NCBI RefSeq assembly: GCF_056746865.1 | Contig: NZ_CM163382.1 | Length of the DNA: 64,000 nt | Direction: 5' to 3' (one strand) | Notes under the pieces: generated by a model | Seen by the model: only the letters and a program-made list of their open reading frames with translations | Database searches by the model: none | What the model was told of the DNA's origin: nothing | In this document: positions 54,477-64,000 of the stretch, in pieces | How positions within the stretch are numbered: position 1 is the stretch's first letter | How the letters are laid out: the number at the start of each line of letters is the position of its first letter | Program-made: the position numbers and the translations under genes

Positions 54477-55061
54477 ATGAAAAGTATCCAGGACGTCCGC
54501 AGGCAAAATCTCAACGACTTGATCGACCGTGAATTCAATGGTGTTCAGACGCGGATGGCAGAAAAACTTGGAACTCAGGCAAATCTGGTAAACCGCTGGG
54601 CTCTTGGCAAGAAGGTTATCGGCGACCAGGTTGCGCGAAAAATTGAAGCTGCCGCCAATAAACCCCGTAACTGGCTTGATATCGATCGCTCGCTTTCTCA
54701 GGAAGGTTTTCAGCCTGTCGGCCCAAGCGACATTGGTCAGCTGGCGGCTCACAACCTGGAACGCTGGATGAGCGAAAGCCGCGACCTTTCAACACAGGGA
54801 AAACTTCACCGCGCATCCGGCGTCGCCCAGGTGACAATCAGCCGCCTGTTAAACAATGAGGTCAGCGTTTCCATTTCCACCCTGGAGAATGTTGCATCCG
54901 CATTCGGGCGTCACGGATATGAACTACTGATTCACCCGCACGACCCTGCGACTATCAACTATGACCGCTCACGCTACGCATTGTTACCCGAAACCGAGAA
55001 AGCAAAGATCGAAAGTTACATTGAATTTGTCATCAACCAGAACGAAAAAAGCAAACAATAA
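54477..55061 (+). CDS. CI-like repressor with two XRE-type HTH domains
   Basis: 194 aa; two HTH-like segments (QTRMAEKLGTQANLVNRWALGKK and RASGVAQVTISRLLNNE); divergent from the cro-like gene. Confidence 0.6.
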   Translation: MKSIQDVRRQNLNDLIDREFNGVQTRMAEKLGTQANLVNRWALGKKVIGDQVARKIEAAANKPRNWLDIDRSLSQEGFQPVGPSDIGQLAAHNLERWMSESRDLSTQGKLHRASGVAQVTISRLLNNEVSVSISTLENVASAFGRHGYELLIHPHDPATINYDRSRYALLPETEKAKIESYIEFVINQNEKSKQ

Positions 55062-55108
55062 AACTATATTTTTCAGTAAGTAAGCCGCCTCATGGCGGCT
55101 TTTTTATT

Positions 55109-55123: not shown

Positions 55124-55180
55124 TAATGGGTAATTTTTTTAACTCATATCTATTGACATCAAACCAAATACGCATAATTA

Positions 55181-55195
55181 TTACCTAAACGGTAA
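55181..55195. promoter_or_regulatory. operator-like inverted repeat TTACC-TAAAC-GGTAA overlapping a promoter-like region
   Basis: TTGACA at 55153-55158 lies 22 bp upstream; the site precedes the 55373 operon. Confidence 0.45.
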
Positions 55196-55372
55196 CAGAC
55201 CGAGGTAACAAGTTATGCAGTGGAAAATCATCAACGGTTGGTACTGCGTTACTGCATGCGGATTCATGAGCTGGAAGTTCCGCACCTTACAGGAAGGCAT
55301 TAAGTGGGCTTTCGTCAGCAAAGAAGCTCGCGATGTGGCCAACGATAACGAGATATGGGAGTAGGTTAGCAA

Positions 55373-56407
55373 ATGAGTGAATTATCAATCATCGAAATCA
55401 CACCAGACATGGCACCAAGAATTTACGTTGAAAAAGGGCTGGAAAAGTTTCTCGAGCAGATCCGTGAAGGTGTTAATGAAGTGCCTGACATTAGCACAGA
55501 CAAAGGCAGAAAGCGCATTGCATCTCTGGCTGCGAAGGTTTCAAGAAGTAAAACAGCGGTAGAAAAACCAGGACGTGATTATCTGAAACGCCTGAAAGAA
55601 CAGCCGAAAGTAGTTGAAGCAGAGTTACGACGCTTCGTAACCGAATGCGATCGGCTTCGTGATGAAGTACGCCGCCCACTCACCGAGTGGGAAAATGCTG
55701 AGAAATTACGCACTGAAGCACTGCAACAACGCCTGACAAATTTGCGAGCACTAGCTGACGTGATCGATCTCTCCGGAAACTACTTGCCATCATCTGATAT
55801 TCAGGAACGAATTCAAGAGGCTAAATCAGTAGCACTTGATGAAAGTTGGCAGGAGTACGCAGCAGAAGCTGGAGTAGCCAAGGATTCAACCATCAAGAAA
55901 CTGGAAGAATCACTCGCAGTAGCTCAAAAACGCGAGCATGAAGCCGCTGAGCTGGAGCGACTTCGCAAAGAAGCGGAGGAAAAAGCGCGCATTGAGCGAG
56001 AAGAGAATATCCGACGGGAAGCTGCTGAACAGGCCAGGCTCGAAGCTGAACAAAAAGCGAAAGCTGAAATTGAGGCTGCGGCACGCCTGGCGGCGGAAGA
56101 AAAAGCACGTGCTGAAGTAGCAGAACGTCAGCGAATTGAAGCAGAGCAGCGTGCACGACGCGAAAAAGAAGAAGCCGTTGCCGAGGAACGCCGACGCCAA
56201 GAGGCGGCAGAAAAAGCCCGCCTTGACGAACAGAAGCGTATCGCCGACGAAGAAGCGCGCCGAGCTGCAGATAAAGAGCATCGCCGTACCGTTAACCGCA
56301 GAGTAATCGCAGATCTGATAGCCCAAGGCATTCACGAAGAATTCGCGCAGAAAGCAATGTTGGCTATCGCTGGCGGCAAAGTGCAGGACGCGTATATCAA
56401 ATATTGA
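55373..56407 (+). CDS. coiled-coil protein with TolA-like Glu/Ala/Lys/Arg-rich repeats
   Basis: 344 aa; long low-complexity helical region (EAEQKAKAEIEAAARLAAEEKARAE...); first gene of the recombination operon. Confidence 0.5.
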   Translation: MSELSIIEITPDMAPRIYVEKGLEKFLEQIREGVNEVPDISTDKGRKRIASLAAKVSRSKTAVEKPGRDYLKRLKEQPKVVEAELRRFVTECDRLRDEVRRPLTEWENAEKLRTEALQQRLTNLRALADVIDLSGNYLPSSDIQERIQEAKSVALDESWQEYAAEAGVAKDSTIKKLEESLAVAQKREHEAAELERLRKEAEEKARIEREENIRREAAEQARLEAEQKAKAEIEAAARLAAEEKARAEVAERQRIEAEQRARREKEEAVAEERRRQEAAEKARLDEQKRIADEEARRAADKEHRRTVNRRVIADLIAQGIHEEFAQKAMLAIAGGKVQDAYIKY

Positions 56408-56408
56408 G

Positions 56409-56714
56409 GTGGGTATGAACGTTAATCAGCAGAAAAATCTTCAAAAAATCATGCTGGCATTCGACAAGGACTACCGCCTGTCAGAACAGCTATATGACCG
56501 ACAAGTTGAACTGATCGATAGCATCCGGCTTCATCAACTGGCCTCAACTTTTGACGCTGTAACAGGCAAAGGAGTTCGCCAGGAAGTACTGGAGGCTGCT
56601 AAAGACAGCCCTGAGTTCGAAGAACTGATGGATGCCTACCGGCGAGAGGCAATGGCAATTATCGCCCGCTGGGATCTGGCGGATCGGATTGATGGGCAGA
56701 GGGAAGCGGCATGA
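56409..56714 (+). CDS. hypothetical protein
   Basis: 101 aa, between the coiled-coil gene and the exonuclease gene. Confidence 0.45.
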   Translation: MGMNVNQQKNLQKIMLAFDKDYRLSEQLYDRQVELIDSIRLHQLASTFDAVTGKGVRQEVLEAAKDSPEFEELMDAYRREAMAIIARWDLADRIDGQREAA

Positions 56715-57532
56715 AACCGGGAATTTATTTCGACATCAGCAATGAGGACTACCACGCCGGTGACGGCGTGAGTAAGTCGCAACTGGACATGGTTGCCAAG
56801 AATCCGGCGCTTCTTAAATGGGTTCAGGCAGCACCAGAAGACGAAGAGAAAAAGTCTGCACTGGATATGGGAACCGCATTGCACTGCCTGCTTCTGGAGC
56901 CTGGAGAGTTCGACAAACGCTTCATTGTTTCACCGAAATTCGATCGTCGGACGAAACAAGGTAAAGCTGACGAAGAAGCATTTCTTCGTGATGTAGCGGA
57001 TATGGGGATTACGGTACTTGATGCCGAGCAGTGGCGGAAACTGGAGCTGATGCGTGATAGCGCAATGGCTCACCCGGCGGCACGCTGGATGCTGGAAGCA
57101 CCTGGTTACTGCGAAGCATCAATGTACTGGAATGATGAAGAGACTGGTGAGTTGTGCCGCATTCGTCCAGACAAATGGCTGAACGAGCACAACGTGATCG
57201 TCGACGTGAAAAAGGTTGCAGATATGGACCGTTTTGCACGCCACATCGAGGAATTCCGCTACCACGTGCAGGACGCAATGTACCGCGAAGGCGCAATGAG
57301 GGTTACTGGTCAGCCGCATGGTTTTTTCTTTCTTGCCGTGAGCGAAAGCATTGATTGTGGTCGGTATCCGGTACGCGTGTTCGAGCTGGATGCGCCGGAT
57401 GTCGATGCCGGGCACGCTCTGTTCCGCCGGGATCTGAATACCTATCACGAATGCCGCATCAACGATGAGTGGGGCGGAGTGGAAATTATTAAACGCCCTG
57501 ACTGGGCACGTAAACAGGATATGTACGTATGA
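56711..57532 (+). CDS. RecE-like exodeoxyribonuclease VIII (PD-(D/E)xK exonuclease)
   Basis: 273 aa; N-terminus MKPGIYFDISNEDYHAGDGVSKSQL and an internal D...E.K motif (VIVDVKKV); upstream of RecT. Confidence 0.65.
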   Translation: MKPGIYFDISNEDYHAGDGVSKSQLDMVAKNPALLKWVQAAPEDEEKKSALDMGTALHCLLLEPGEFDKRFIVSPKFDRRTKQGKADEEAFLRDVADMGITVLDAEQWRKLELMRDSAMAHPAARWMLEAPGYCEASMYWNDEETGELCRIRPDKWLNEHNVIVDVKKVADMDRFARHIEEFRYHVQDAMYREGAMRVTGQPHGFFFLAVSESIDCGRYPVRVFELDAPDVDAGHALFRRDLNTYHECRINDEWGGVEIIKRPDWARKQDMYV

Positions 57533-58410
57533 GCAATGATATCGCAATCACATCACAACCAGGCGCAACTGTAGGTACTGCTGCGGCAATCTTCAGCCCG
57601 GAGGGCATGAATCAACTGGTGCGTTTCGCGGAGTTGATGTCACAAAGCAAAGCGACTGTACCGAAACATCTTGAAGGCAAACCTGCCGATTGTCTGGCGG
57701 TGACCATGCAGGCGGCACAGTGGGGAATGAACCCTTTCGCCGTGGCGCAGAAAACGCATGTGGTAAACGGAACGTTAGGCTACGAAGCACAGTTGGTAAA
57801 CGCGGTCGTATCCTCTTCCAGCCTGCTAGCGACACGCCTGAATTATCGCTGGAGCGGTGACTGGTCGAATGTTAACGGCAAAACAGATAAATCACCGAAT
57901 CTGACGGTAACTGTGTCAGCAGTTCTTAAAGGAGAAGCAGAACCCCGTGAGCTTACCATCAGTATGGCGCAAGCCGGAGTGCGTAACTCTCCATTGTGGG
58001 AACAGGATCCGCGCCAGCAGCTTGCCTATCTTTGCACGAAACGATGGGCTCGCCTGCACGCTCCTGATGTGCTTCTCGGTGTTTACACCCCTGACGAATT
58101 ACAGGAAACGGCACCGCGCGTTGAGCGAGACATTACTCCGCAAACGACTACTGCTGCGGGAATGAACAGTCTGATCAACGCTAAACCAGTGAAAAAGCAT
58201 GATGAGCAAACGCGTAAAGCGGATAGCCGTGATCCAGAAGAAATGCTGATGGCCTTTACCAGCGCAGCGATGAATTACAGCACTGTCTCCGAACTGGATA
58301 AGGCTTACAAATACATTGCACAAAAACTTTCAGATGATGACGAACTGCTGGCAAAAGCCACCGACGTTTACAGCGTTCGTCGGGAAGAATTAAACGAAAC
58401 ATCTATGTAA
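57529..58410 (+). CDS. RecT-family single-strand annealing recombinase
   Basis: 293 aa; paired with the upstream exonuclease. Confidence 0.65.
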   Translation: MSNDIAITSQPGATVGTAAAIFSPEGMNQLVRFAELMSQSKATVPKHLEGKPADCLAVTMQAAQWGMNPFAVAQKTHVVNGTLGYEAQLVNAVVSSSSLLATRLNYRWSGDWSNVNGKTDKSPNLTVTVSAVLKGEAEPRELTISMAQAGVRNSPLWEQDPRQQLAYLCTKRWARLHAPDVLLGVYTPDELQETAPRVERDITPQTTTAAGMNSLINAKPVKKHDEQTRKADSRDPEEMLMAFTSAAMNYSTVSELDKAYKYIAQKLSDDDELLAKATDVYSVRREELNETSM

Positions 58411-58459: not shown

Positions 58460-58708
58460 ATGAAAGGTGCATTAGGTAAGAAGGAACTCCTGGCGGTGGT
58501 GCCACTGTCATGGAGCACTATCGACCGTATGGAGCGCGCAGGGGAATTTCCTAAACGCTGGTATATCACTGACAAACGCTGCGCATGGAACCGTGACGAA
58601 GTTGAGCGTTGGCTTGATGAACGTCAGGCAGCAAGCCCGGCAGAGTTCCAGGGTAAAAAACCTCCTGTTCAGCAACGTGTATATCGTCCCGTGAGCAACG
58701 CTGCATGA
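58460..58708 (+). CDS. AlpA/Xis-like small DNA-binding protein (excisionase candidate)
   Basis: 82 aa; AlpA-like HTH region (LAVVPLSWSTIDRMERAGEFPKRWYI). Confidence 0.55.
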   Translation: MKGALGKKELLAVVPLSWSTIDRMERAGEFPKRWYITDKRCAWNRDEVERWLDERQAASPAEFQGKKPPVQQRVYRPVSNAA

Positions 58709-58817: not shown

Positions 58818-59117
58818 GTGAGAAAGTTAAGCCGACTTGAAAAATATCACATGAATAAGGTTTCAATGCGCAGTCCGTCAAAGATTGTCGCCGTTACTCC
58901 TGCGGCGATAGAGATCGAAAAACGCGCGATTGAAAGAGAGAAAAAAGGGCAGTTCCGCATTGCCGCTCACCTTTGGCTTCAGTGTATGGATGTTGCTTCT
59001 GGTGATGTTGAGCGTGCAAGGATCGCGGTTCGCAGGGACCAATGTATCACAAAAGGTAACGGCCTTCGCCGTGGAGACTATAGCGGTATAGGATGTTGCG
59101 GGGTGGTTTATGACTAA
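58818..59117 (+). CDS. hypothetical protein, translationally coupled to the methyltransferase
   Basis: 99 aa; its stop overlaps the methyltransferase start. Confidence 0.4.
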   Translation: MRKLSRLEKYHMNKVSMRSPSKIVAVTPAAIEIEKRAIEREKKGQFRIAAHLWLQCMDVASGDVERARIAVRRDQCITKGNGLRRGDYSGIGCCGVVYD

Positions 59118-59760
59118 GAAATACACACTAATCTATGCAGATCCACCCTGGGTATACCGGGACAAAGCCGCAGATGGTAATCGCGGTGCCGGTTTTAAAT
59201 ATCCGGTTATGAGTGTGATGGATATCTGCCGCCTTCCTGTGTGGGATTTGGCCGATGAAAACTGTCTGTTGGCCATGTGGTGGGTGCCAACACAACCACT
59301 CGAAGCACTAAAAGTTGTTGAAGCCTGGGGGTTCCGTCTGATGACCATGAAGGGCTTCACGTGGATAAAATGTGGTAGTCGACAACCAGATAAACTGGTT
59401 ATGGGTATGGGACACATGACTCGCGCCAATAGTGAAGATTGCCTGTTTGCAGTTAAGGGAAAACTACCTCCGCGCATTAATGCAGGGATCGTTCAGTCAT
59501 TTACCGCACCGCGGCTTGAGCATTCAAGAAAACCAGATGTCGTTCGTGAAAAACTTGTGCAATTGTTAGGCGATGTTTCTCGCATTGAACTGTTCGCCCG
59601 CCAGACGTCTCATGGCTTCGATGTTTGGGGTAATCAGTGCGAAGACCCGGCAGTGCAACTACACCCCGGATACGCGTTGGATATTGGCGGATTAACAAAT
59701 GCATTCAGCAATGCTCCGCTGTCACCAACAGACAACCAGGGACGGGAGCGTGCAGCATGA
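59110..59760 (+). CDS. MT-A70 family N6-adenine DNA methyltransferase (orphan)
   Basis: 216 aa; catalytic DPPW motif (LIYADPPWVY); no adjacent restriction endonuclease gene recognised. Confidence 0.75.
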   Translation: MTKKYTLIYADPPWVYRDKAADGNRGAGFKYPVMSVMDICRLPVWDLADENCLLAMWWVPTQPLEALKVVEAWGFRLMTMKGFTWIKCGSRQPDKLVMGMGHMTRANSEDCLFAVKGKLPPRINAGIVQSFTAPRLEHSRKPDVVREKLVQLLGDVSRIELFARQTSHGFDVWGNQCEDPAVQLHPGYALDIGGLTNAFSNAPLSPTDNQGRERAA

Positions 59761-60005: not shown

Positions 60006-60329
60006 AATCACGCCTGACGAATCGCGATTATCTCGCTATTGGTATTGCAGAGATTGCTGGACTCAATGGCGCATGATTTGACAATGCCGCCAGAGCTATC
60101 GCATACTGACCGCACTAGAAAACAAACAGCGGTCATCCGCACCCGATAGCTTTGCGGCTTTTTTATGCCTGCAATCTGGCATAGTCACATCCGTACAAAG
60201 GTCGGGTGGAGAGGCGTAATACAACACCCGAAAGGGGAATATGCCCGGAGCTACTGTTTGTGCTCTAGTTGACACCCGATCACCAGCTACTAACTGGTTT
60301 TCGTAACTAAAAACAAACAGGAGGTCATC

Positions 60330-60980
60330 ATGACCAGTCAACTCATCCCCGTATTCAACGGCACTATATCCAACGAAACCGCTCTTCTCGTTAATGCCCG
60401 TGATTTACACACTTTCCTCGATGTGGGTAAGCGATTTGCTTCGTGGATTGTCGAACGAATTGCTGAATATGGTTTCGTTGAAAATCAAGACTTTATGATT
60501 ATTTCCCAAGTTCGGGAAAAAATAGGCAGAGGCCGTCCTGCAAAAGACTACCACCTCACCCTCGATACAGCCAAAGAGCTGGCGATGGTCGAGCGTAATG
60601 AAAAAGGTCGTCAGGTACGACGCTACTTCATTGAATGCGAGAAACGTTTAAGACAACAAGAAACAAAAGTGGAGAAGGTCTTGTCAGGCTTCATGCCCGC
60701 CATTATGGAGGCGATCAAGCTGGAAGACAAAAAAGAATACAGTGCCCCACTGAAGCCCGGCTACCGCAGCCTGATTCACTCGCCGTCTGGTGTTCTCGGC
60801 CTGACGGAGCACTCACTGCTGATGAATCTGCTGAACCAGTTACAGGACGACGGGCACGACGTATCGGGCGCGGCGGCGGAGCTGACCACCATGTTCTGCT
60901 ACATCGTCGGTGTGAGCAAATGCCTGCGTGATATCCAGACTCACGCGGAGTACATCAACGACAAGGCAGGATTCTTCTGA
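60330..60980 (+). CDS. antirepressor-like protein (Ant/Bro-N-type N-terminal domain), function uncertain
   Basis: 216 aa; strong Shine-Dalgarno (AGGAGG) and TTGACA at 60259-60264; N-terminal region resembles phage antirepressor families. Confidence 0.4.
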   Translation: MTSQLIPVFNGTISNETALLVNARDLHTFLDVGKRFASWIVERIAEYGFVENQDFMIISQVREKIGRGRPAKDYHLTLDTAKELAMVERNEKGRQVRRYFIECEKRLRQQETKVEKVLSGFMPAIMEAIKLEDKKEYSAPLKPGYRSLIHSPSGVLGLTEHSLLMNLLNQLQDDGHDVSGAAAELTTMFCYIVGVSKCLRDIQTHAEYINDKAGFF

Positions 60981-61011
60981 CGGCGGCGGCACAGGGATGT
61001 GCCGGGCAAAA

Positions 61012-62262
61012 TTATTCCCCCGCCATCCACTTCTCAAACTTCGACGGGGAGAACGGAATCAGATCCGTATGCTCCCCGTTAATCCAGGAATCAATCATAT
61101 CGGACCACTGCTGCAACATGTAGGCGCGCTGTCTGGCGTATTCCGCTTTGTTATATACGGCGCGCACACCTTTCTGCTCATGTGCCAGAGCCTTTTCAAT
61201 CCAGTCTGAAGGATAACCAGCCTCATGCAACAACGTACTGGCTGTACGGCGCATATCGTGTACGGTGAAGTCCTGAATATGCTCACCATCTTCATTTATT
61301 ATTTTCACCGTTCTGTCGATCAGAGAGTTCAGCGCGGCATTAGATAATGGCTTCCGGAAGTTGTAACGACCAGGAACCAGATATTCACTTCCACCAGCGC
61401 ACATCTGCAACCCAACCAATATATCCTGAGCCTGTTTAGGCAGGTAAATAACGTGCGCCCGGCTTCCCTTCATGCGGTCTGAAGGAATTGTCCATGTCCA
61501 TTTTTTAAAATCTATTTCGTCCCACGTTGCATTAGTGAATTCGCCTTTACGAACCATAGTGATAAGCACCAGCTTTAAAGCCATTTTCATAGTGCCCATA
61601 GCACCAATGGCATCCAGCGTGCGGAAGAACAGGCCAATTTCTTCTGGTGTCAGTGTTCGCTCTCGTGGTTTAAATATGGCGATAGACGAAGGTTTAATGT
61701 CAGCCGCAGGATTAAACAAACCATGACCACGGTCATTGGCGTGACGGTATACGCTACTGATGATCTCCCTGGCCTGCACTGCTGTTGCCCGGCCACCGCG
61801 TTCGACAATCCGGTCACACAAATCACGAACCATCGATGTGGTAATTTCAGCCATCATTTTATTGCCAAGAACCGGAAGTATGTCACGGTCGATCACCGCC
61901 TGTTTCATTGCGCGGGTACTGTCAGCCAGGATGACGTGTTTCATATAACTGTCGGTATGTACCGCAAACGTCTCGGCACCACGAATCTTTTTGATACCGT
62001 CACGTTTAGCCGCAGCCGGTGACTGGCCTGCTTTAAGCAGCTTCTTTGCAGCAATCAGTTCTTCTCGCGCTTCTGCCAGGCTGATACCGTCACGCCCATA
62101 CTGCCCGATTACCAGTGTTTCGCGGCGACCGTTGATACGGTAGTCATAGCGAAACGAGACCGTGCCTGACGTAAGCACAGCTACATACAGCCCGTCACGA
62201 TCGGAGACCTTGTACAGTTTGTCCTGCGGCTTGAGGTTTTTTAATTTTGTATCGGTAAGCAC
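61012..62262 (-). CDS. int: tyrosine integrase (P4-like, with N-terminal arm-binding domain)
   Basis: 416 aa; N-terminus MLTDTKLKNLKPQDKLYKVSDRDGLYVAV typical of arm-type DNA-binding domains; C-terminal catalytic region (HDMRRT...AHEQKGVRAVY); adjacent to the att repeat. Confidence 0.85.
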   Translation of the reverse strand: MLTDTKLKNLKPQDKLYKVSDRDGLYVAVLTSGTVSFRYDYRINGRRETLVIGQYGRDGISLAEAREELIAAKKLLKAGQSPAAAKRDGIKKIRGAETFAVHTDSYMKHVILADSTRAMKQAVIDRDILPVLGNKMMAEITTSMVRDLCDRIVERGGRATAVQAREIISSVYRHANDRGHGLFNPAADIKPSSIAIFKPRERTLTPEEIGLFFRTLDAIGAMGTMKMALKLVLITMVRKGEFTNATWDEIDFKKWTWTIPSDRMKGSRAHVIYLPKQAQDILVGLQMCAGGSEYLVPGRYNFRKPLSNAALNSLIDRTVKIINEDGEHIQDFTVHDMRRTASTLLHEAGYPSDWIEKALAHEQKGVRAVYNKAEYARQRAYMLQQWSDMIDSWINGEHTDLIPFSPSKFEKWMAGE

Positions 62263-62450: not shown

Positions 62451-62467
62451 TTAATCATTCCCACTCA
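62451..62467. repeat. attR candidate: 17-bp direct repeat AATCATTCCCACTCAAT overlapping the guaA stop codon
   Basis: Identical to 23131-23147; encodes the last guaA codons (..IEWE-stop) on the minus strand. Confidence 0.6.
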
Positions 62468-64000
62468 ATAGTCGCTGGTGGCTTGCCGCTGATGTCATAC
62501 ACCACGCGGGAAATACCGTTCACTTCATTGATAATGCGGTTGGAAACGCGACCGAGGAAGTCATACGGCAGGTGCGCCCAGTGTGCGGTCATAAAGTCGA
62601 TGGTTTCGACAGCACGCAGAGAAACAACCCAGTCATACTTACGACCATCGCCCATTACACCAACGGAACGTACCGGCAGGAAGACGGTGAACGCCTGGCT
62701 GACTTTGTCGTACAGGTCCGCTTTACGCAGTTCTTCAATAAAGATGGCGTCAGCACGGCGCAGCAGGTCGCAGTACTCTTTCTTCACTTCGCCCAGTACA
62801 CGAACGCCGAGGCCTGGTCCCGGGAACGGGTGACGGTACAGCATGTCGTACGGCAGGCCCAGCTCCAGACCAATCTTACGCACTTCGTCTTTGAACAGCT
62901 CTTTCAGCGGTTCAACCAGCCCCATCTTCATCTCTTTCGGCAGGCCGCCCACGTTGTGGTGAGATTTGATGACGTGTGCTTTACCGGTTGCAGATGCGGC
63001 AGATTCAATAACGTCAGGGTAGATAGTGCCCTGCGCCAGCCACTTCACGTCTTCCAGTTTCAGTGCTTCTTCATCGAATACTTCAACGAAAACGCGCCCG
63101 ATGATTTTACGTTTTGCTTCCGGATCGTTTTCGCCGGCCAACGCTGACAGGAAGCGAGCTTCTGCCGGAACGTGAACAATGTTCAGACCAAAGTGATCGC
63201 CAAACATATCCAGAACCTGCTCTGCTTCGTTGAGACGCAGCAGGCCGTTGTCGACGAATACGCAAGTCAGGTTTTTACCGATAGCGCGGTGCAGCAGCAT
63301 TGCGGTTACGGAGGAATCCACACCACCAGAGAGGCCGAGGATGACTTTATCGTCGCCTACCTGCTCGCGGATGCGAGCTACGGCGTCGTCGATAATTTTC
63401 GCTGGCGTCCACAGGGCTTCACACTGGCAGATATCACGCACAAAACGCTCCAGCATGCGCATACCCTGGCGGGTGTGAGTCACTTCCGGGTGGAACTGTA
63501 CGCCATAGAAGCGTTTTTCTTCGTTAGCCATAATGGCAAACGGGCAGCTTTCGGTGCTGGCTACGGTGACGAAGTCGGACGGGATAGCGGTAACTTTATC
63601 GCCGTGGCTCATCCAGACATCGAGCAGCGGTTTACCGTCTGCGGTCAGCGCATCTTCGATACCGCGAACCAGTGCGCTGTCGTTTACGACTTCAACCTGC
63701 GCGTAGCCAAATTCACGTTCGTTAGAGGCTTCAACGTGACCGCCCAACTGCATTGCCATGGTCTGCATGCCATAGCAAACGCCGAATACCGGTACGCCTG
63801 CTTCAAAGACATACTGCGGCGCGCGCGGGCTGTTTTCTTCGGTGGTGCTTTCCGGGCCGCCGGAAAGAATAATGCCGCTTGGGTTGAAGTCACGAATTTG
63901 TGCTTCTGTCACATCCCACGCCCACAGTTCGCAGTAAACACCCAGTTCACGCACGCGGCGCGCAACCAGTTGAGTGTACTGAGAACCGAAGTCCAGAATG
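62455..64000 (-). CDS. guaA: GMP synthase (glutamine-hydrolysing), 3' portion; N-terminus lies beyond the window
   Basis: C-terminal ATP-pyrophosphatase domain (SGGVDSSV P-loop) and part of the glutamine amidotransferase domain; reading frame runs off the right window edge. Confidence 0.9.

Follow-up and report, generated by a model that had tools for sequence, protein, structure and literature searches.

A widespread phage protein family with a helical rod of phase-constrained length accompanies diverse recombination modules

Exonuclease and annealase modules of the Red and RecET type underlie recombineering, and accessory genes such as those for Gam, Abc, and SSB largely decide whether they succeed in a given host. 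In Firmicutes phages, a Mu-Gam-like, Gp157, DUF1351, or DUF2483 gene stands ahead of erf and sak4, and analogous functions have been proposed for these genes (PMC8093625). The 'BAS' operon of Ab31 was cloned without ORF39 and is said to lack a RecBCD inhibitor, and lambda or Plu Gam improved its performance (PMC6438905). In RecET-like operons from Burkholderia, most of the hypothetical proteins encoded alongside made recombination more efficient in the native host, although not in E. coli (PMC8313284). Here we describe a gene from a 64,000-nucleotide stretch of contig NZ_CM163382.1 (NCBI RefSeq assembly GCF_056746865.1; referred to below as the window) that encodes a 344-residue protein and heads an exonuclease and RecT module in a lambdoid prophage integrated beside guaA.

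55373..56407, plus strand: 344-residue family gene, matching phrog_1376 over its full length

The gene has already been catalogued, as a PHROG and as a RefSeq 'hypothetical' protein, and is not a new sequence. It is, however, an additional component in a well-known kind of system, one that is very widespread, keeps a consistent position, and has so far gone unstudied. From its sequence and gene order, we tentatively suggest that the protein may be a non-catalytic adaptor or bridging factor of phage recombination.

Family and linkage to recombination modules

The listing of open reading frames (ORFs) in the window confirms a 344-residue ORF with an ATG start at these coordinates, exactly as a first-pass annotation made from the sequence alone had placed it. 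We take it to be a real gene rather than a chance reading frame because it matches phrog_1376 over its full length (residues 2 to 344 against positions 5 to 362 of the 362-position profile, E = 1.8e-121; 'unknown function' in PHROGs v4) and has thousands of homologues. A phmmer search with the N-terminal 185 residues against 1.84 billion cluster representatives (50% identity) found 4,938 proteins at E ≤ 1e-3, of which 2,698 reached E ≤ 1e-10. The matched domain is N-terminal in every case, and the proteins are mostly 280 to 390 residues long. With tblastn, the family was detected in 163 of 50,697 phage records, mostly temperate, with hosts mostly in Pseudomonas, Vibrio, Escherichia, Klebsiella, Erwinia, Yersinia, Shewanella, and Acinetobacter. 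It also occurs in 27 small 'plasmids', almost all of them non-mobilizable and some beta- or alphaproteobacterial. A near-identical gene is present in 34 of 5,426 complete E. coli genomes, and the copy in E. coli E22 (locus L096) is 99.6% identical to the one in the window.

The protein has no Pfam domain at E ≤ 0.1, and a scan of 86 diverse relatives gave nothing except scattered low-complexity matches in single members, which agrees with the initial description of a protein that lacks a recognisable catalytic domain. Eight unusually long relatives (up to 519 residues) carry no Pfam domain either, so no domain fusion was seen. PADLOC gave no match to the protein at E ≤ 0.1, a PDB sequence search gave a low-complexity match only, and the N-terminal domain on its own has no Pfam or PDB sequence relative. 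Searches of Pfam, NCBIfam, PADLOC, and the PDB yielded no relative. In the literature searched, we found no experimental test of the phrog_1376 family.

The position of the family gene was analyzed in 80 IMG/VR loci, retrieved with a 10-sequence alignment as the query and cut to 35 loci at <85% identity, with Pfam scans of the nearest four ORFs on the same strand in either direction. In 34 of the 35 loci, one of the next four genes downstream encodes an annealase (RecT-family in 24, Erf in 5, Rad52-like in 3, and Sak4-like in 2), and each complete locus has an annealase plus an exonuclease or SSB one to four ORFs downstream. The downstream Pfam counts were RecT 24, YqaJ 12, DUF3799 12, SSB 7, ERF 5, Arf 4, Rad52_Rad22 3, and AAA_24 2. 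In the four upstream ORFs, no annealase, exonuclease, or SSB was found, only repressor-type helix-turn-helix (HTH) proteins, N, Kil, and assorted domains of unknown function. The same arrangement is seen in individual phages: D3 orf53 and JBD44 gp65 lie directly 5' of genes for Erf and a YqaJ exonuclease, Ab31 ORF39 directly 5' of Bet-exo-SSB, and HK544 gp37 directly 5' of cIII-kil-Arf-Erf-Abc2. In metagenome loci L004 and L009 the family gene adjoins Erf-YqaJ or YqaJ-SSB, and in one metagenome locus it comes after, not before, Erf-YqaJ. The link to recombination modules is strong, directional, and independent of the annealase superfamily, of which four unrelated ones are represented. The first-pass view of an uncharacterised gene that is neither Gam nor Kil and that belongs with the recombination genes is borne out.

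On metagenome contigs L006, L007, and L008, which carry the divergent member P0225, no Pfam-recognisable annealase follows the family gene. Downstream are small genes without assignment, and beyond them come genes for an RNase_T-type exonuclease and for a PDDEXK_1/Cas4-like nuclease. These contigs possibly hold a recombination module with an unrecognised annealase.

Many unrelated small functions sit in early-left operons, and the protein could be a passenger there, with a host-takeover or regulatory role (interference with the nucleoid, replication, or division, as for Kil) and merely co-transcribed early with the recombination genes. Lambda and P22 manage without the gene, which fits such a role. 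Also in its favor, Burkholderia h2YI23, a hypothetical protein encoded at the end of its operon that may or may not belong to the family, had no recombineering effect (PMC8313284). However, the adjacency spans four annealase superfamilies, several exonuclease types, distant hosts, and one locus in reversed order, and in the 35 loci the annealase that is found downstream in all but one is found upstream in none. We consider the passenger explanation unlikely.

Protein architecture and rod length

Alignments and an AlphaFold2 (AF2) model with a mean pLDDT of 88 and very long helices divide the protein into three parts.

55373..55924, plus strand: conserved N-terminal helical domain, residues 1 to 184, delimited from alignments and a conservation table
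55925..56281, plus strand: helical rod rich in Ala, Glu, Arg, and Lys, residues ~185 to 303 (~119 residues)
56282..56404, plus strand: C-terminal unit of ~41 residues, with the pattern HRR.VN....L...G..E..A.....AIA.GK.....I.Y

The N-terminal domain is the most conserved part and defines the family. It consists of a small head and a long helix, residues 43 to 126, that is basic (net +9) and amphipathic. Its motifs are VPD39..T42.KGR46..IAS51LA.KV.RSK60T, G67, K75, D93, R100-x-P102-L-T-x-W-E107, and R113, and the conserved motifs of the protein are common to the 86 diverse family members. Within this set K60 and P102 are invariant (100%), and D39, T42, G45, R46, S51, A53, G67, K75, D93, R100, L103, T104, E107, and R113 are nearly so. 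A variable insert at about residues 114 to 160 is absent from HK544 gp37.

The C-terminal unit ends in a tyrosine in 90% of the 86 members, with a phenylalanine in locus L086. It gave weak, sub-threshold matches to UBA-like and RuvA_C three-helix domains (LATS2 UBA, E = 0.022; HUWE1 UBA, 0.52; RuvA_C, 0.064), and the corresponding units of 5 of the 35 members gave sub-threshold matches to UBA_7 (best 0.025). We dropped a SAP or HhH identity for the unit, for which these weak UBA-like matches are all that was found. The unit also matches the C terminus of phrog_21365, and among ~100 related loci it was not found on proteins outside the family. The whole protein has a pI of 5.9 and no membrane segment or signal peptide (maximum Kyte-Doolittle 19-residue mean of 0.70), and we conclude with high confidence that it is cytoplasmic and non-enzymatic in appearance.

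The rod is 85% Glu, Lys, Arg, Ala, and Gln and 10% hydrophobic, with no heptad periodicity. The first-pass annotation had correctly recognised this Glu/Ala/Lys/Arg-rich helical region, but it described the protein as dominated by charged repeats, and the region covers ~119 of 344 residues, or about one third. It had also called the protein TolA-like and offered a cell-envelope effector as one possible function. The NCBIfam TolA model (NF007065 / PRK09510) does match, with E = 0.0023, and several public records bear a TolA label. However, this match reaches 17 bits where the cut-off stands at 213 and covers no more than the low-complexity stretch at residues 155 to 301, and the likeness is compositional only. 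The rod resembles TolA domain II in being a long Ala/Lys/Glu-rich helix, whereas the membrane anchor (domain I) and C-terminal globular domain III of TolA are both absent from the 344-residue protein, and the family-defining N-terminal domain is unrelated to TolA. A TolA-related envelope role is highly improbable and effectively refuted.

RefSeq names the protein 'hypothetical' or 'coiled-coil domain-containing protein'. Homologues in public records are labelled 'TolA protein', 'cell envelope biogenesis protein TolA', 'ribosome recycling factor', 'translation initiation factor 3-like', or 'septal ring factor EnvC' (JBD44 gp65, vB_EcoP-683R2, plasmids NZ_CP063485 and NZ_CP081778, Lbo240-yong2, PS15B.3, and JGI P0007). 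The TolA, EnvC, ribosome recycling, and IF3-like labels are composition artefacts of the charged helical rod. Several antisense and alternative-frame ORFs overlap the rod-coding region at 55890..56335, for example 55910..56335 (minus strand, 141 residues), 55893..56156 (minus), 56128..56331 (minus), and 55938..56120 (plus). They are by-products of purine-rich, low-complexity codons and not genes; the AT skew is +0.22 to +0.27 at 55-57 kb of the window.

The length of the rod varies in a constrained manner. The spacer between the N-terminal domain and the C-terminal unit, with boundaries set by hidden Markov models, ranges from ~62 to 156 residues across the family (2.5-fold), and its lengths fall on a lattice of 87, 91, 94, 98, 105, 109, 116, 123, 127, 134, 138, 145, and 152 residues, with steps of 4, 7, and 11. 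For 90 representatives, each from a different 50%-identity cluster, the phase concentration R is 0.874 at a period of 3.60-3.64 residues, which is the global maximum over periods of 2-25 residues. R falls to 0.49 at 3.5 residues and is ≤0.18 at 7, 11, and 18 residues, while a null in which lengths were jittered by up to 9 residues (2,000 trials) gave a mean R of 0.10 and a maximum of 0.32. Tandem Repeats Finder found no DNA repeats in this gene that would generate the length steps, and we rejected DNA tandem repeats as the source of the quantisation. The rod alanines follow a period of 3.6 (mean normalised power 4.65), and opposite-charge pairs are most strongly enriched at i to i+4. Rod length is free while helical phase is kept, hence a conserved angular relation between the end domains. 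The phase-locked lengths together with the alanine stripe indicate that the rod acts as a straight, uninterrupted α-helical element with an alanine seam. It is neither a flexible linker nor a canonical heptad coiled coil, and it provides an unusually clean natural case of a phase-constrained helical spacer.

The C-terminal unit is mosaic relative to the N-terminal domain. The last 54 residues of the window's protein, a stretch that includes the C-terminal unit, are 91-93% identical to those in loci L031, L041, L045, L050, and L057, and in this same set of phages the N-terminal domains are 42-57% identical and the annealases differ. This combination of near-identical C termini with divergent N-terminal domains implies recombination breakpoints within the gene, in or near the rod, and just after the gene. 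One cluster of N-terminal domains (≥65% identity) spans Erf/Rad52 with SSB (5 loci), RecT-family with YqaJ (4 loci), and RecE with RecT (2 loci). The C-terminal unit type found in the window (≥75% identity) occurs with all three of these annealase/exonuclease classes, and also with the divergent N-terminal domains described above. Because neither end is tied to an annealase class, a dedicated annealase or exonuclease partner is disfavoured. Judged by these sequence comparisons, the target of the protein is probably one common to all of the modules, either DNA or a conserved host protein.

Exchange of the C-terminal unit could also reflect exchange of a host-facing module, as expected if the protein were an anti-defence or decoy protein, encoded beside the genes that set off host immunity and acting against systems that detect phage DNA ends, recombination proteins, or the inhibition of RecBCD. 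Gam-type inhibitors, and likewise phage annealases and SSBs, can set off some retrons and certain other systems. The early-left location among host-takeover genes (in relatives, N, Ral, Kil, and cIII are found next to the gene or upstream of it) and an accessory rather than universal distribution are in keeping with this idea. However, the N-terminal domain, with its invariant residues, is deeply conserved across phages of Enterobacteria, Pseudomonas, Vibrio, Shewanella, and beta- and alphaproteobacterial hosts, which is unusual for a protein in an arms race with defence systems of sporadic distribution. The lack of a PADLOC match and the very strict positional tie to recombination genes also speak against it, and an anti-defence function appears improbable.

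The early-left operon and host-nuclease inhibition

In the window, the family gene lies among the following features.

54477..55061, plus strand: CI-like HTH repressor (HTH_3 and phrog_8), upstream of the operon on the same strand
55082..55101, plus strand: terminator-like hairpin and T-run after the CI-like repressor gene
55153..55181, plus strand: promoter-like site TTGACA-17-AATTAT (10/12, consensus match only), a candidate pL-type early-left promoter
55215..55364, plus strand: conserved 49-residue ORF, first gene of the early-left operon (phrog_898, E = 5e-38)
56409..56714, plus strand: 101-residue ORF (phrog_856), probable divergent Gam-like protein; RefSeq start 56415, 'hypothetical'
56711..57532, plus strand: PD-(D/E)XK exonuclease of the RecE C-terminal type (DUF3799, E = 4e-22; phrog_412)
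57529..58410, plus strand: RecT annealase (PF03837, E = 8e-32; phrog_561)
58460..58708, plus strand: AlpA/excisionase-type (Xis) HTH protein, after RecT in the same operon (Phage_AlpA, phrog_66)
61012..62262, minus strand: integrase
62455..63954, minus strand: guaA

To the left of this plus-strand operon, the minus strand carries a Cro-like gene together with O-like and P-like replication genes. The stop codon of the 344-residue gene is separated from the start of the 101-residue gene by 1-7 nt, and ATGA overlaps join the exonuclease start to the stop of the 101-residue gene and the RecT start to the exonuclease stop. These short gaps and overlaps indicate a single operon. We conclude with high confidence that the 344-residue gene is expressed from a repressor-controlled early-left operon, for which the promoter-like site above is a candidate promoter. 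The first-pass annotation had made it the first gene of the recombination operon. It does directly head the exonuclease/RecT module, but the 49-residue ORF precedes it. By tblastn, 25 related loci have that ORF directly 5' of their family gene, and most of these loci are of the RecE+RecT type. In RefSeq, the 49-residue ORF of strain E22 is annotated as four codons longer, overlapping the start of the family gene. The exonuclease aligns to residues 606-873 of ExoVIII (NF007259).

Beyond the Xis-type gene, the operon runs on at 58818..59760 (plus strand) with genes for a PerC-type activator (phrog_868) and an MT-A70-family DNA methyltransferase (phrog_359), the latter overlapping the PerC-type gene by 8 nt. 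An anti-restriction or epigenetic function for this pair, alongside the recombination genes, is possible. Between a DUF1382-like gene and the integrase, ~1 kb at 60006..61011 includes a gene for an Ant-type anti-repressor (60330..60980, phrog_377), and this segment is missing at the same position in the related E. coli E22 prophage.

The location of the family gene raises the question of whether its product is a host-nuclease inhibitor or DNA-end protector, doing the work of lambda Gam, P22 Abc, or Mu Gam by blocking RecBCD or another end-degrading complex such as SbcCD and so clearing the way for the phage exonuclease and annealase. In D3, JBD44, and Ab31 the gene occupies the position of lambda gam, directly 5' of the annealase-exonuclease pair, and independence of the annealase class would suit a host target. 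The Ab31 BAS operon, which omits ORF39, 'lacks a RecBCD inhibitor' and gained from lambda or Plu Gam (PMC6438905), and Mu-Gam-like or Gp157 genes fill the analogous slot in Firmicutes (PMC8093625).

The 344-residue protein, however, shows neither sequence nor fold similarity to lambda Gam (PF06064, phrog_259) and the GamS structures. A relationship to Sipho_Gp157 (PF05565, Sfi21 orf157) was also rejected: the hhalign probability was 0.15%, against a single-sequence target with limited sensitivity, and the 86 members gave no Pfam match. A detached N-terminal part of Rac RecE (residues 1-600), as from gene fission, was rejected as well (hhalign probability of 0.06% against K-12 RecE). The DUF1351 Pfam model (PF07083) had no match at E ≤ 0.01 among the 86 members. 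Three phages considered as DUF1351 examples proved otherwise: Listeria A118 gp47 is a YqaJ exonuclease, and Lc-Nu and Javan483 carry Gp157-type genes upstream instead.

A second argument comes from the slot that separates the family gene from the annealase module. This slot holds a Gam-like gene in at least 12 of the 35 loci. Lambda Gam homologues occupy it in L069, L071, and L084. An iterative search seeded with GamS recruited slot proteins of 93-128 residues in ten further loci (L026, L030, L031, L048, L057, L058, L061, L068, L085, and L088; for example, L057:4968-5249). These proteins carry the GamS N-terminal signature MNAY..YDR[IL]E...W and then diverge, and many end in a conserved ...CPF. 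The Pfam Gam model does not match them at E < 1e-3. A slot profile built without lambda Gam or a close homologue found GamS (2uuz, 5mbv) as its best PDB sequence match (E = 0.0015), with an hhalign probability of 83%. The slot proteins may be a variant of Gam with a different C-terminal half.

In the window, this slot is filled by the 101-residue protein, which probably is a divergent host-nuclease inhibitor of the lambda Gam type. Its slot and size match those of the true Gam homologues of L069, L071, and L084. Four signals, each of them weak, converge on this reading. Comparison with the L084 Gam gave an hhalign probability of 54% (E = 1.2e-4) over 73 collinear columns, phmmer gave a 14-bit edge, and the L084 Gam matches phrog_856 with E = 2.5e-4. 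A Foldseek search of 350,542 PDB chains ranked RecBCD-bound lambda GamS (5mbv_A) first, over 97 columns with a TM score of 0.44, at a non-significant E of 0.57. The 101-residue protein had no PDB profile match, and its hhalign probability against a mixed Gam alignment was 0.3%. It shows no similarity to RacC or to a detached N-terminal part of Rac RecE, both of which were considered.

HK544 carries Abc2 in addition to its family member. The occurrence of Gam-like genes and Abc2 together with the family means that the family does not replace Gam-type inhibitors. The probable divergent Gam next door in the window, the lack of homology to Gam, Gp157, or the RecE N terminus, a pI that is less acidic than those of DNA mimics, and a size three times that of known inhibitors all count against nuclease inhibition by the 344-residue protein. 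The suggestion of a host-nuclease inhibitor in the first-pass annotation is weakened by these observations, but it keeps some room in modules of the Pseudomonas type, in which the family gene and the annealase gene are direct neighbors and a Gam-like gene was not seen. It applies mainly to those modules, and for the family we regard it as distinctly unlikely.

Possible role and comparison with known systems

For the adaptor or bridging role that we tentatively favor, the following mechanism can be envisaged. The protein would act as an accessory in the recombination pathway without contacting a particular annealase or exonuclease. Its target would be either the DNA substrate, at ends or forks, or a conserved host protein of DNA metabolism. 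The straight helical rod would hold the two end domains at a set distance and in a fixed angular register, possibly in a dimer packed along the alanine stripe. By positioning or bridging its partners, the protein would favor the phage's own route of end protection, resection, and annealing. We hold any role in recombination, adaptor or bridging activity on DNA ends, forks, or a host protein, and a need for fixed geometry of the end domains with low-to-moderate confidence. A more specific version, which we consider doubtful, is that the protein is a phase-locked helical 'strut', an unrecognised component of Red/RecET-type systems that bridges DNA ends or couples recombination intermediates to a conserved host factor. 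Such a strut would possibly consist of two antiparallel copies, with the N and C parts forming a composite head at either end.

Several observations weigh against an adaptor role. Recombination is efficient in lambda and P22, which lack this gene, and this together with the presence of the family in only 163 of the 50,697 phage records makes it accessory and not essential. The synteny may mirror shared early-left regulation and not shared function. Burkholderia h2YI23, which may or may not be a family member, had no recombineering effect. Despite its basic helix, the N-terminal domain has an overall net charge of -3 and is not basic, and the charges conserved in it could have a structural role. 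In the AF2 monomer model, the rod is folded back on itself at a low-confidence turn at residues 244-252 instead of running on as a single helix. The rod is perhaps continuous, in which case it could form a dimer along the alanine seam, or it is a hairpin, and we do not decide between these forms.

The family is of interest for its size, for the strength and breadth of its synteny, for its link to recombineering, and for a helical-phase constraint that is open to a clean experiment. With ~4,900 clusters at 50% identity, it is large, has neither a Pfam entry nor a structure, and is often mislabelled 'TolA'. At least one recombineering operon, Ab31 BAS, was published without its family member. 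If the protein does contribute to recombination, it would be a new component of a textbook pathway and a practical means of improving genome engineering in hosts such as Pseudomonas, Vibrio, and Klebsiella. If the strut version holds, omission of the gene from cloned operons such as Ab31 BAS would partly explain why recombineering transfers poorly between hosts.

Among known systems, lambda Gam and GamS are alike in being the product of a helical, non-enzymatic accessory gene just 5' of an exonuclease and annealase, independent of annealase type. In contrast to Gam, the 344-residue protein is 3.5 times larger and not homologous, and the Gam-like candidate in the window is the next gene. The Gp157/DUF1351/DUF2483 slot of Firmicutes follows the same genomic logic, with a largely helical protein directly 5' of diverse annealases (erf, sak4, and recT), but Gp157 has ~160 residues, lacks the rod and the C-terminal unit, and belongs to different host phyla. 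The Burkholderia 'h/e' proteins are co-encoded with RecE and RecT homologues and are likened to the family by gene context, not by sequence; by analogy, they may serve as a precedent for additional module components. The rod itself resembles ER/K single α-helices in its high Glu, Lys, and Arg content, its i to i+4 ion pairs, and its lack of a heptad signal. Unlike a pure ER/K single helix, it carries a straight alanine stripe with a period of 3.6 residues, which suggests helix-helix packing.

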